The notes: generated by a model not told the origin, from the letters alone. A DNA stretch of 64,000 nt from Escherichia coli (GCF_003334785.1 NZ_QOWV01000002.1), one strand, 5' to 3'; positions 31,235-61,615 are shown, counted from the stretch's first letter. Numbers and translations: made by a program.

Positions 31235-31261
31235 AAAAAATAAGCCCGTGTAAGGGAGATT
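31235..31261. repeat. attL core (27 bp)
   Basis: AAAAAATAAGCCCGTGTAAGGGAGATT, identical to 61589-61615. Confidence 0.85.
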
Positions 31262-31340
31262 TAGGGTGTCACCAGTAGGGGCTTTCAACGGTACAATGCG
31301 GGTTTGAGCGGCATAAATTACCACTGAAAGCCCTTAAACG

Positions 31341-32354
31341 TTACTCTACTGTGGACACTGTGTGGACACTCTCGGCCTCAGTACCACCTCTTAGCGGATT
31401 AAGAGAAATGGCGTCCTGAAGGTACTCTGGCGCAAAATGAGCGTAAACCATAGTTTGCTCAATCCGCGTGTGACCTAGTATCCGTTGTAGCGTGATAATA
31501 CTTCCTCCATTAATCATGAAATGAGTGGCAAAGCTGTGCCTTAGTGCATGTGTGGCTTGCCCCATTGGCAAATCCGGTTTTATTGCTTTCATTGTTCGTC
31601 TGAAGCGAGGGTAATCAGCATCAGGGAATAAAAAACCTCGTTTGTTATCCGCGATCATTTTGGCAACAGCCTCTGAGATCGGGACGGTGCGTGGTTTGTT
31701 TGTTTTCGTTTTAACAAACGTGACGCGGTTATGGATGATATTTTCTGCTTTCAAACGAGCTGCTTCTCCCCAACGTGCTCCAGTACTCAGGCAAAGAATC
31801 GCAATCTTTTTGTTGTCGCCGTCAAGAGCAGCAAGCAGTAAGGCAATTTCTTCCTGCGTGAGATAGCCTGTGTCTGGTTTTTCCTCCTTAAGCCTTTTTG
31901 TCCCTCTGATAGGGTGCTCACCAAAGAATAACTCCGCTTCAATCAGGGCTGTAAACATGCCGCTAATACATGTTAAATCACGATTGATACTCGAAGGTTT
32001 AATACCCTGACTTCTTCGGGTGGCGCAGTACTGGCTGATAAGCGATTTCGTAATTTGAAATGCGCATGGGTCATTCGTTATTTTTGTGAAGATTTCAATT
32101 TTTCCAAGATTAGATTTCCCATGCTCTTCGTGTTTACCCTTTAAATCCCACCAGATCTGTGTCAGCTCCGACAGACGTCGCTTGTCTGTTGGTTTTGATA
32201 GCCATTCTTTATTGTGGTGGTTGTACAACGTGTATTTCTCGAAAGCGACAGCTTCGCTTTTCTTATCAAACTTCCTACGGATGCGTTTTCCATTACGTCC
32301 AGTAGGGCGGATGTCCACTTCATATCGACCATCATCGAGTTTTTTGATTGCCAT
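31341..32354 (-). CDS. int: phage P2-type tyrosine integrase
   Basis: 337 aa, MAIKKLDDGRYEVDIRPTGRNGKRIRRKFDKKSEAVAFEKYTLYNHH..., C-terminal catalytic HxxR...Y region. Confidence 0.95.
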   Translation of the reverse strand: MAIKKLDDGRYEVDIRPTGRNGKRIRRKFDKKSEAVAFEKYTLYNHHNKEWLSKPTDKRRLSELTQIWWDLKGKHEEHGKSNLGKIEIFTKITNDPCAFQITKSLISQYCATRRSQGIKPSSINRDLTCISGMFTALIEAELFFGEHPIRGTKRLKEEKPDTGYLTQEEIALLLAALDGDNKKIAILCLSTGARWGEAARLKAENIIHNRVTFVKTKTNKPRTVPISEAVAKMIADNKRGFLFPDADYPRFRRTMKAIKPDLPMGQATHALRHSFATHFMINGGSIITLQRILGHTRIEQTMVYAHFAPEYLQDAISLNPLRGGTEAESVHTVSTVE

Positions 32355-32469
32355 CAGAAAACCCTCCGAGTGGTGTGTTTTTTTGCGACTACTAATCGCT
32401 TTTTTCGTGGTGGCTGAAATTTAGCCACCAATAGTAGGCACTTGTGATGAATATATTCACGATGAATTG

Positions 32470-32769
32470 TTAACCAGTCTTTTGACCGGAGTGGGGCGAC
32501 GTTGTTTCGTTTTGCCCAAAGTGTGCGAGAGCGGGCGCAATTTGCCCGGACTCAGGAGCGATCTGATTGGTCATGAACCATAAAGTGTATTTGGTGAATT
32601 GTGGGGTCTGCAGGATGTTCATCATGACATCTGTTGGAGGTGTTGAACGACCACTTTCATAGTAACTCAGCGTGCCATACGGAACCCCTGTTAAATCAGC
32701 AAGTTGTTGTCTGCTCAAATACTCTGATTTTCGCATTAAGACTATCTTCTCGCTTATCGTGTTTGACAT
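32470..32769 (-). CDS. C: P2 immunity repressor C
   Basis: 99 aa, HTH-containing (LSRQQLADLTGVPYGTLSYYESGRSTP); divergent from cox. Confidence 0.85.
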   Translation of the reverse strand: MSNTISEKIVLMRKSEYLSRQQLADLTGVPYGTLSYYESGRSTPPTDVMMNILQTPQFTKYTLWFMTNQIAPESGQIAPALAHFGQNETTSPHSGQKTG

Positions 32770-32883
32770 GGTGTTTAGATCTCAATAGTATTTAGTTTAG
32801 ATGTAGATTGTTTAGTGCTTGGATGTGGGCACTAAAAGGCATTATAAGACATTAAACGCAATTCATGAGGGCTAGAGGACGAC
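32770..32883. promoter_or_regulatory. C/cox divergent promoter-operator switch region
   Basis: Intergenic region between the divergent C and cox genes with direct repeats TTTAGAT at 32774-32780 and 32796-32802 plus further TTTAGT copies. Confidence 0.5.
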
Positions 32884-33030
32884 ATGAGCAAGCAAGTAAC
32901 ACTCATGACTGATGCGATTCCTTATCAGGAGTTCGCAAAACTAATAGGAAAATCGACATGAAGTGGTTTACTGAATTTGGCCACCTGAACAGAGGTGATA
33001 TGCTCACCTCAGAACAACACAGGTGCCATA

Positions 33031-33333
33031 ATGAAAAAAAGAAATTTCAGCGCAGAGTTTAAACGCGAATCCGCTCAACTGGTCGTTGACCAGAATTACA
33101 CCGTGGCAGATGCAGCCAGCGCTATGGATGTCGGCCTTTCCACAATGACGCGATGGGTGAAACAATTACGTGATGAGCGGCAGGGAAAAACACCAAAAGC
33201 CTCCCCCATTACCCCGGAACAAATTGAAATCCGTGAGCTCAGGAAAAAGCTACAACGTATTGAAATGGAAAATGAAATATTAAAAAAGGCTACCGCGCTC
33301 TTGATGTCAGACTCCCTGAACAGTTCTCGATAA
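33031..33333 (+). CDS. IS3-family transposase OrfA (HTH)
   Basis: [91 protein letters not shown]. Confidence 0.9.
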
Positions 33334-33359
33334 TCGGGAAACTCAGGGCGCGTTATCCT

Positions 33360-59529: not shown

Positions 59530-59543
59530 GGAGGTGACGAAAA

Positions 59544-60023
59544 ATGATGCTCGCGTTAGGTATGTTTGTTTTTATGCGCCAGACGCTGCCACACCAGACC
59601 ATGCAGCGTGAATCAGATTATCGCTGGCCGTCAAATTCCCGTATCGGCAAACGGGATGCCTTTCAGTTTCTCGGTGTTGGCGAGGAAAATATCACGCTTG
59701 CCGGTGTGCTTTATCCAGAGCTGACCGGCGGCAAGCTGACGATGACCACGCTCAGGCTGATGGCTGAGGAAGGCCGGGCGTGGCCGTTGCTGGATGGCAC
59801 CGGCATGATTTACGGCATGTATGTCATCAGCAGGGTGAGTGAAACAGGGAGTATTTTCTTTGCAGACGGCACACCCCGGAAAATTGATTTTACGCTGTCG
59901 CTCACCCGCGTTGATGAATCACTGGCCGCGCTTTATGGCGATATCGGTAAACAGGCGGAATCGCTCATCGGTAAGGCTGGCAGTCTGGCGACTAAATTCA
60001 CGGGTATGACGGGGGCGGGATAA
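59544..60023 (+). CDS. U: tail protein gpU
   Basis: 159-aa ORF after T. Confidence 0.8.
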   Translation: MMLALGMFVFMRQTLPHQTMQRESDYRWPSNSRIGKRDAFQFLGVGEENITLAGVLYPELTGGKLTMTTLRLMAEEGRAWPLLDGTGMIYGMYVISRVSETGSIFFADGTPRKIDFTLSLTRVDESLAALYGDIGKQAESLIGKAGSLATKFTGMTGAG

Positions 60024-61186
60024 TGCTGGATGCGCTGACATTTGATGCAGGCAGTACGCTGACGCCGGATTACATGCTGATGCTCGACAGCAGGGATATT
60101 ACCGGCAATATCAGCGACCGTCTGATGAGTATGACCCTGACGGATAACCGGGGCTTTGAGGCTGACCAGCTTGATATTGAACTGAACGATGCCGACGGGC
60201 AGGTCGGGCTGCCGGTTCGTGGCGCTGTCCTGACGGTGTATATCGGCTGGAAAGGTTTTGCCCTGGTATGCAAAGGGAAATTCACCGTTGATGAGGTTGA
60301 ACACCGGGGCGCGCCGGATGTGGTCACCATCCGCGCCCGGAGTGCAGATTTCCGCGGGACGCTCAATTCCCGCCGGGAAGGCTCCTGGCATGACACCACG
60401 CTCGGTGCGATTGTTGAGGCGATAGCCTCCCGTAACAGGCTGGAAGCCAGTGTCGCTCCGTCACTGGCCGGAATTAAAATCCCGCACATCGACCAGTCGC
60501 AGGAGTCCGATGTGAAATTCCTGACCCGTCTTGCTGAACGCAACGGCGGCGAGGTGTCGGTAAAAATGGGAAAACTGTTGTTTCTCAAAGCGGGGCAGGG
60601 GGTGACGGCCAGCGGTAATAAAATCCCGCAGGTAACCATTACCCGCAGCGACGGCGACCGCCATCATTTTGCGATTGCTGACCGTGGAGCCTATACCGGC
60701 GTAACGGCAAAGTGGTTACACACCAAAGACCCGAAGCCGCAAAAGCAGAAGGTAAAACTGAAACGCAAAAAGAAAGAAAAACACCTGCGCGCACTGGAGC
60801 ACCCGAAAGCAAAACCGGTCAGGCAGAAGAAAGCGCCAAAAGTACCGGAAGCGCGCGAAGGTGAATACATGGCCGGTGAGGCTGACAACGTTTTTGCCCT
60901 GACTACGGTATATGCCACAAAAGCGCAGGCCATGCGCGCCGCTCAGGCGAAGTGGGATAAACTGCAACGGGGCGTTGCGGAGTTCTCCATCAGCCTGGCT
61001 ACCGGTCGGGCAGATATTTACACGGAAACACCGGTCAAAGTGTCTGGCTTTAAGCGCGTCATAGACGAGCAGGACTGGACAATCACTAAGGTGACACACT
61101 TTCTGAATAATTCCGGCTTCACGACGTCCTTAGAGCTTGAGGTCAGGCTTTCTGATGTGGAGTACGAAACAGAAGATGATGAGTAA
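60023..61186 (+). CDS. D: tail/late control protein gpD
   Basis: 387-aa ORF preceding ogr. Confidence 0.85.
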   Translation: MLDALTFDAGSTLTPDYMLMLDSRDITGNISDRLMSMTLTDNRGFEADQLDIELNDADGQVGLPVRGAVLTVYIGWKGFALVCKGKFTVDEVEHRGAPDVVTIRARSADFRGTLNSRREGSWHDTTLGAIVEAIASRNRLEASVAPSLAGIKIPHIDQSQESDVKFLTRLAERNGGEVSVKMGKLLFLKAGQGVTASGNKIPQVTITRSDGDRHHFAIADRGAYTGVTAKWLHTKDPKPQKQKVKLKRKKKEKHLRALEHPKAKPVRQKKAPKVPEAREGEYMAGEADNVFALTTVYATKAQAMRAAQAKWDKLQRGVAEFSISLATGRADIYTETPVKVSGFKRVIDEQDWTITKVTHFLNNSGFTTSLELEVRLSDVEYETEDDE

Positions 61187-61267
61187 TGTTTTTATTTTAT
61201 CTGTTTGTTTTATAAGGATAAATTAACTAAAATGGCACCATCAACAAAACCGGAAGAGGTGCTCGCG

Positions 61268-61486
61268 ATGTTTCATTGTCCTTTATGCCAGCATGCCGCA
61301 CATGCGCGTACAAGCCGCTATATCACTGACACGACAAAAGAGCGTTATCACCAGTGCCAGAACGTGAATTGCAGCGCCACGTTCATCACTTATGAGTCGG
61401 TACAGAGATACATCGTGAAGCCGGGAGAAGTCCACGCCGTGAGGCCGCACCCGTTGCCGTCAGGGCAGCAAATTATGTGGATGTAA
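61268..61486 (+). CDS. ogr: late gene transcriptional activator Ogr (zinc finger)
   Basis: MFHCPLCQHAAHARTSRYITDTTKERYHQCQNVNCSATF..., Cys4 zinc-binding pattern, 72 aa. Confidence 0.85.
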   Translation: MFHCPLCQHAAHARTSRYITDTTKERYHQCQNVNCSATFITYESVQRYIVKPGEVHAVRPHPLPSGQQIMWM

Positions 61487-61496
61487 TTACAAACAG

Positions 61497-61524
61497 AAAG
61501 CCCCTCAGTCGAGGGGCTTTTTTT
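61497..61524 (+). terminator. intrinsic terminator after ogr
   Basis: AAAGCCCCTC/GAGGGGCTTT hairpin followed by TTTTTTT. Confidence 0.7.
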
Positions 61525-61588
61525 GTCGATGTGGTCAATGTGTGGACGTGACCAGAAATAAATCCTTTTATTTCATTGTATTACGCGT

Positions 61589-61615
61589 AAAAAATAAGCC
61601 CGTGTAAGGGAGATT
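61589..61615. repeat. attR core (27 bp)
   Basis: AAAAAATAAGCCCGTGTAAGGGAGATT, identical to 31235-31261. Confidence 0.85.

Follow-up and report, generated by a model that had tools for sequence, protein, structure and literature searches.

The stretch of DNA considered here, a window of 64,000 nucleotides of an Escherichia coli genome (GCF_003334785.1, NZ_QOWV01000002.1), carries a P2-type prophage between the host genes yegS/yegR at its left and yegQ (trhP) at its right. A 27-bp direct repeat, AAAAAATAAGCCCGTGTAAGGGAGATT, stands at the two ends of this element. Exact copies occur on the plus strand at 31235-31261 and 61589-61615 only, 30,354 bp apart, and no further match with three or fewer mismatches was found on either strand of the whole window. 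A separate repeat search returned the same pair, and none of 100 dinucleotide-preserving shuffles contained a match, the chance expectation being none. The 27 bp represent the maximal exact identity, as the neighbouring bases differ both on the left (A at 31234 versus T at 61588) and on the right (T at 31262 versus A at 61616). The integrase gene int lies 79 nt rightward of the left copy, and the right copy is preceded by ogr and by a GC-rich terminator hairpin with a T-run. All of this agrees with the initial annotation, which had reported the two copies, one beside int and the other after ogr and its terminator, and had proposed them as the limits of the prophage.

The proposal that the repeat marks the prophage boundary was borne out by comparison with the free phage. 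In the P2 record NC_001895 the identical 27-mer, delimited at the same bases, is annotated both as attP and as the core-binding site of the integrase Int. Four sequences were then set side by side: the left junction (attL), the right junction (attR), the unoccupied site of E. coli C3728 and P2 attP. The C3728 site has a single core copy, whose 110 nt on the left are those of the left flank of attL and whose 90 nt on the right are those of the right flank of attR. Reciprocally, the right arm of P2 attP is identical over 90 nt to the right side of attL, and its left arm equals the left side of attR save for a few core-proximal differences. The initial annotation had named an empty site devoid of the 27-mer as the observation that would speak against the boundary; unoccupied E. 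coli sites hold exactly one copy. Arm-type Int sites, for which the consensus of P2-type integrases is tgTGGaCa (PMC3448106), are present on both arms: TGTGGAC occurs twice on the P' arm, at 31350 and 31361, inside the 3' end of int, and two sites lie on the P arm, at 61530 and 61541. Joints of this kind are the signature of conservative, Int-mediated site-specific recombination. A single copy in unoccupied sites would likewise be left by a target-site duplication of the transposon type. This origin of the repeat, or a duplication by chance or in the assembly, is nevertheless extremely improbable: the free phage bears the same 27-mer at its annotated attP with reciprocal arms, a tyrosine integrase adjoins the repeat and arm-type Int sites flank it. 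In addition, 27 bp is far above typical transposon duplications (the insertion sequence (IS) within this very prophage made one of 3 bp), and a chance event is at odds with the lack of matches in the shuffles and with the same joints in hundreds of genomes.

The frequency of these joints was obtained from a survey of 5,426 complete E. coli genomes, in which the reconstructed attB measured 601 bp. At least 80% of this attB was covered in 4,566 genomes, a count that takes in K-12-type remnants. A P2-type int abutted yegR in 812 genomes, and D-ogr abutted yegQ/trhP in 1,113. When the junctions were compared with unoccupied genomes, homology to the attL query ended at 31261 in all matches listed, and homology to the attR query started at 61589 in about half of the matches listed and 8 nt earlier (61581) in the others. 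Positions 31261 and 61589 mark where the two copies of the core have their outer edges. With integrase-side occupancy in about 15% of complete E. coli genomes, the site is a common source of strain-to-strain variation. E. coli-type attL and attR joints of this P2 prophage also occur on contigs labelled as a Citrobacter and as a Collinsella metagenome-assembled genome, which are probably E. coli DNA binned in error.

The insertion had been described as intergenic and not in a tRNA. ARAGORN detected no tRNA or tmRNA gene in the 64-kb window, so the second half of that description stands, but the first does not, as the core is the 3' end of the small RNA (sRNA) gene cyaR (ryeE). CyaR folds with an energy of -20 kcal/mol and has an 11-bp terminator stem (AGCCUGUGUAA/UUACACGGGCU). 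Read on the minus strand, the 27-mer (AATCTCCCTTACACGGGCTTATTTTTT) takes in the final two bases of this stem's 5' half, the loop, the entire 3' half and the U-tail. At attR cyaR is complete, with its body and upstream region (the B' side) unchanged, and the attL core is an orphan copy of its last 27 nt. Judged from the sequence, attB consists of the final 27 nt of cyaR/ryeE, a CRP-dependent sRNA gene, and the phage carries a copy of these 27 nt. In this respect, the cyaR 3' end plays the part that a tRNA gene plays for other phages, with an sRNA gene as the target. The association agrees with earlier reports: Bobay, Rocha and Touchon, citing Wassarman et al. 2001, refer to ryeE in E. coli as 'previously known to be targeted by phages' (PMC3603311), and the K-12 gene order has been given as cyaR-ogrK-yegR (PMC9765468).

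According to a review, P2-type integrases generally insert between genes (PMC3448106), and the initial annotation saw no gene at the site. Both points would be compatible with a target that is generic intergenic DNA, the overlap with cyaR being incidental to site choice. We consider this very unlikely, given that the terminator and U-tail of cyaR, itself full length and high-scoring, fall on the core, that ryeE is already cited as a phage target, and that the same spot is occupied elsewhere. A scan for the 21-nt core, with one genome per species, found the same 21-nt cyaR 3' end kept in several Kluyvera species, with the DNA just beyond differing by species: in Kluyvera intermedia a P2-like attR (the end of ogr, the terminator and the P arm) stands at cyaR, and the other Kluyvera species have unrelated downstream sequence. 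In E. coli GF31 the same cyaR site is taken by a P2-like prophage whose int has diverged (87% nucleotide identity to the attL-region query from yegS to int). Its shared core is shorter: only AAAAAAATAAGCCCGTGTAAGGG is common to this prophage and attB, and the phage-side sequence beyond it differs. The occupancy of one spot in Kluyvera and in GF31 indicates that the cyaR terminator is a recurrent landing site.

The small hairpin that the initial annotation had noticed over the left copy is real. Its 8-bp arms, GGGCTTAT (31222-31229) and ATAAGCCC (31240-31247), enclose a loop of 10 nt, and its folding energy is -10.4 to -11.8 kcal/mol, with z = -3.2 and -1.8 for the two strands. Because it occurs in unoccupied sites too, the hairpin belongs to the host attB (B arm plus core) and is not a product of integration. 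The right half of the hairpin consists of the 3' stem of the cyaR terminator and the first part of the U-tract. The left half is situated beyond the CyaR 3' end, on its downstream side, at the exact spot where E. coli differs from a relative, Escherichia sp. MOD1-EC7003, that retains a longer P-arm-like sequence. No U-run follows the hairpin on either strand. Nor is a terminator rebuilt at attL by the phage side and the orphan core, the fold of this combination being no better than that of shuffles (z = -0.13).

From the identities, the joints, the overlap with cyaR and the gene lesions described below, all of them observed directly, we conclude with high confidence that the two copies of the 27-mer represent the attL and attR cores of a defective P2 prophage integrated by Int at the 3' end of cyaR. 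The phage is a Peduovirus P2 with the same immunity type and the same integrase. Int, a tyrosine recombinase, together with IHF would have carried out a reciprocal exchange between attP and the chromosomal attB, located at the 3' end of cyaR between yegR and yegQ/trhP. With its own copy of the last 27 nt of cyaR, attP leaves an intact cyaR at attR and the orphan 27-nt copy at attL. After integration, an IS3-family element has split cox, and a 3.0-kb deletion has removed genes for head completion, lysis and tail completion. Genes still encoded by the prophage include those for C, Int and Ogr, together with old and tin, which act in exclusion.

The features of the locus are collected in Table 1. 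The prophage aligns with P2 in five collinear blastn blocks with 95-99.5% nucleotide identity, cos included, and gene integrity was tabulated against every P2 protein by tblastn. The P2 gene order is kept, with cos between old and Q. All head, tail and replication genes outside the lesions and the replaced module are full length. The degree of identity varies within this set, the B protein being 100% identical to that of P2, orf81 only 88% and orf30 87.7%.

Table 1. Features of the cyaR-integrated P2-type prophage and its borders (window coordinates)
Feature	Position	Strand	Remarks
Possible decayed second core copy	30440..30466		17/27 identities, ungapped; left edge of yegR segment
Host B arm homologous to P arm (candidate fossil P arm)	31187..31221		one intact arm-type site, ATGTGGTCA
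Hairpin, 8-bp stem and 10-nt loop	31222..31247		host attB part; right half within core
attL core (B-O-P'), left-hand 27-bp P2 att core	31235..31261		exact match; equals attP core of NC_001895, 24356-24382
int, tyrosine integrase	31341..32354	minus	336/337 residues as in P2 Int (99.7%)
C immunity repressor	32470..32769	minus	100% identical to P2 C
5' part of cox (codons 1-25)	32884..32958	plus	cut by IS
IS3-family insertion sequence (ISEc52-like)	32959..34208	plus	1,250 bp
cox 3' fragment	34209..34412	plus	
Early/replication operon: orf78, B, orf80-83, A, orf91	34423..38777	plus	full length, 88-100% versus P2
tin (anti-phage cargo)	38816-39577	minus	99.2% versus P2
old (anti-phage cargo)	39752-41512	minus	100% versus P2
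cos, joined 19-nt cohesive ends	41707..41725		P2 33575-33593 and 1-19; two blastn segments overlap by 19 nt
Head/packaging genes: Q, P (minus); O, N, M (plus)	41895..47608	minus/plus	intact, 98-99.7% versus P2
Truncated S, residues 10-150	47651..48076	plus	
Late-gene deletion junction	47652..47657		P2 5950-8942 missing; junction read directly
orf30 (minus) and baseplate genes V, W, J, I	48147..51512		
Replacement tail-fibre module	51509..54824		supplants P2 H, G, fun(Z); PHROG matches
Tail genes FI, FII, E, T, U, D	54884..61186	plus	intact, 98-100% versus P2
ogr (61268-61486) and intrinsic terminator (~61497-61525)	61268..61525	plus	Ogr 100% versus P2
P arm: arm-type Int sites TGTGGTC (61530) and TGTGGAC (61541), IHF-site region	61526..61588		
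attR core (P-O-B'), right core copy, functional cyaR 3' end	61589..61615		exact match and cyaR overlap
cyaR (ryeE) sRNA gene, full length	61592..61677	minus	Rfam RF00112, 100.7 bits versus gathering score 47, model 1-85 of 85

Three changes separate this prophage from the phage genome. The first is the IS that interrupts cox at codon 25. It shares 99.5-99.8% identity with annotated copies of ISEc52 and has terminal inverted repeats that begin TGAAGTGG and a 3-bp target duplication, ACA (32956-32958 and 34209-34211); its two reading frames, orfA (32995-33333) and orfB (33360-34178), both match the NCBIfam IS3 transposase NF033516. The second is the 3.0-kb deletion, which takes L, X, Y (holin), K (endolysin), lysA, lysB, lysC and R, together with the first 9 codons of S. 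In accordance with this, tblastn gave no match for any of the eight missing genes. The third is a replacement: P2 12630-17571, which covers H, G, fun(Z) and the end of I, is unmatched at the nucleotide level, and a 3.5-kb module stands in its place. This module encodes an H of 378 aa, shorter than that of P2, a G-like chaperone, an inverted pair of open reading frames for an alternative chaperone (53059-53661, minus strand) and an alternative fibre C-terminus (53661-54203, minus strand), and a DNA invertase of the Pin/Gin/Cin type (54225-54824, plus strand). As for the crossover sites of the invertase, neither a convincing inverted repeat nor a match to a gix/hix-like consensus was found.

In established P2 genetics, excision depends on Cox, and the genes L, X, Y, K, R and S are indispensable. 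The P2 record NC_001895 likewise annotates the holin, the endolysin, L, X, R and S as essential. Because cox is split by the IS, eight late genes are missing and S is truncated, the prophage appears to be trapped and defective, unable to excise or to make particles. The alternative is an intact, viable P2 lysogen, of which K-12 keeps a remnant. Such a reading could appeal to the size of the unit, 30.35 kb, and to the undamaged state of both att sites and cos, of int and C, and of the replication genes and most of the genes for head and tail. It is very improbable in view of the 1250-bp IS at codon 25 of cox, of the failure to match L, X, Y, K, lysA, lysB, lysC and R, several of them annotated essential in P2, and of the loss of the first 9 codons of S, none of which fits a plaque-forming, excisable lysogen. 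The suggestion of the initial annotation that this strain holds the more complete element is correct only relative to the 641-bp remnant of K-12, which is far less complete; with an IS in cox and with eight late genes and the start of S absent, the element is not an intact P2.

The possibility that the junction between M and S is an assembly artefact was rejected, as the identical junction is present at the same locus in E. coli IAL7250. The prophage of IAL7250 is a different, further-decayed P2-like element: its M-to-S junction region is 97.1% identical to that described here, it carries a ParB-N/Dam cargo instead of old/tin, and it has an additional deletion from W to ogr. The M-to-S deletion may be old and inherited, or may have spread by recombination. 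Identity with the known defective P2-like prophage of E. coli B was also considered and set aside. C here is 100% P2 C, whereas the E. coli B prophage has a different immunity type; moreover, the joint between the IS and cox occurs in no complete RefSeq E. coli genome.

Some points weigh against the interpretation of a defective P2 prophage integrated by Int at cyaR. The crossover point within the 27-bp identity cannot be read from the sequence. The loss of excision and of particle formation is something we infer from the gene lesions. The site may be the one classically named locI in E. coli C, or the his-linked locH/attP2H in K-12, a naming for which the borders shared by this repeat and the annotated attP core give indirect support only.

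The roles attributed to Int, IHF and Cox come from established P2 biology, and the same source would lead one to expect a prophage that no longer excises or forms particles and yet maintains immunity and exclusion. From its intact genes, the prophage would still supply P2 immunity through C and the anti-phage functions of old and tin. It could presumably not be induced, nor help a P4-like satellite. The core and its association with cyaR have been published; the finding is already known, textbook P2 biology, it involves no new kind of element, and this defective copy is an ordinary new instance. Its value lies in annotation, since the limits of the prophage are fixed to the base, the target is cyaR and the copy is probably trapped and defective.

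The only part that may go beyond published knowledge concerns the site that is regarded as 'empty'. The host B arm shares with the P arm of the phage an exact 15-mer, TCGATGTGGTCAATG, within which an arm-type Int site lies, and the two arms agree at 30 of 36 aligned positions. The local alignment of the two arms scores 38, compared with 14.8 +/- 2.2 and a maximum of 26 in 2,000 shuffles, and the repeat search also recovers the pair. Three further E. coli genomes that were examined (C3728, UPEC_U013 and O55:H7 CB9615) retain this P-arm-like stretch. In Escherichia sp. MOD1-EC7003, which emerged from the scan of one genome per species and whose yegR segment is rearranged, the B arm has a full-length P-arm-like stretch with the phage spacing, including the IHF-site region; about 16 nt of it are missing from E. 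coli. In a divergent strain that bears the label E. coli E69, with 89.8% identity across gatD-yegS, yegS is joined directly to the core, and window 30435-31233, about 800 bp that contain yegR and the putative fossil P arm, is absent. The possible decayed second copy of the core lies at the left edge of that segment. A match of 17/27 is reached at only seven other sites in 128 kb (both strands), and the chance of finding one within 10 nt of the boundary and in the right orientation is about 1e-3, a post hoc estimate.

These observations suggest that a much older P2-type element once integrated at the 3' end of cyaR and survives as the yegR segment (30435-31234), a reading towards which we lean only slightly. 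On the left the segment would start at the decayed core copy, and on the right it would end in the decayed P arm, directly beside the live core. This reading is the most economical one for the segment, the alternative being a later deletion in E69. If the older insertion did take place, cyaR would have been a landing site for P2-type elements since before E. coli diversified, yegR would be leftover phage cargo, and the arm-type Int site that survives in the B arm might add to the preference for this site. YegR (30758-31075) matches PHROG 21109 (E = 4e-71). This match was discounted as evidence of phage origin, as it is probably due to host flank in prophage-derived entries, and it calls for caution in anyone using this family as a sign of phage origin. 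When the B arm and yegR were compared with phage records, only prophage-derived records that include host flank were retrieved (such as vB_EcoM-720R8 and 'Phage TP'), and these provide no independent evidence of phage origin. The locus is variable even when 'empty': in UPEC_U013 the distance from yegR to the B arm is greater by about 170 bp, and in SF-173, Eco889 and other genomes listed the site spans about 770 bp compared with the 601 bp here.

Other features of the window lie outside the prophage. A thiamine pyrophosphate (TPP) riboswitch (RF00059) was found at 14896-14992 on the plus strand (71.2 bits). The Rfam family naRNA4, a nucleoid-associated non-coding RNA resembling repetitive extragenic palindromic (REP) sequences, matched at 22847-22917 on the plus strand (64.5 bits), and short matches of E69 to 22844-22878 and 22937-22959 suggest repeated REP-type elements. 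The region 8001-14000 has a low G+C content (0.40-0.46 compared with about 0.51-0.56 nearby), with a strong GC skew at 8-12 kb.

Compared with known systems, the prophage is closest to phage P2 (NC_001895). The core, attB, the integrase with its arm sites and the gene order were all found to be those of a P2-type prophage integrated at its att site. The likeness extends to the 27-bp core and its borders, the order of the genes, cos, the P' arm and the Int sites of the P arm, and to the proteins Int (99.7% identity), C, Ogr and Old (100% each) and Tin (99.2%). In contrast to P2, the prophage measures 30,354 bp instead of 33,593 bp, has an IS in cox and lacks P2 5950-8942, and the C-terminus of I together with H, G and fun(Z) has been exchanged for the 3.5-kb fibre/invertase module. 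The core-proximal IHF-site region also departs from P2 by a few substitutions, which match the K-12 remnant. The latter, a cryptic P2 remnant made up of a D fragment, ogrK and attR, occupies the same site by cyaR with the same attR joint. As the initial annotation had noted, it is small: it amounts to 641 bp, 97.0% identical to window 60974-61615. In K-12 a truncated left core, AAAAAAATAAGCCCGTGTA, is fused to the last 213 nt of D and everything in between has been lost, whereas the prophage described here retains both cores in full and about 29 kb of phage DNA. A wider comparison is offered by elements that integrate at the 3' ends of RNA genes, such as phage 186 (a tRNA-Ile gene), Fels-2 (ssrA) and the Salmonella ryeA/ryeB elements (PMC3448106, PMC3603311). 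As in these cases, the attP core repeats the 3' end of an RNA gene that is structured and conserved, so that integration restores this gene. Unlike them, the target here is an Hfq-dependent regulatory sRNA, of which only the terminator half and the U-tail are duplicated.

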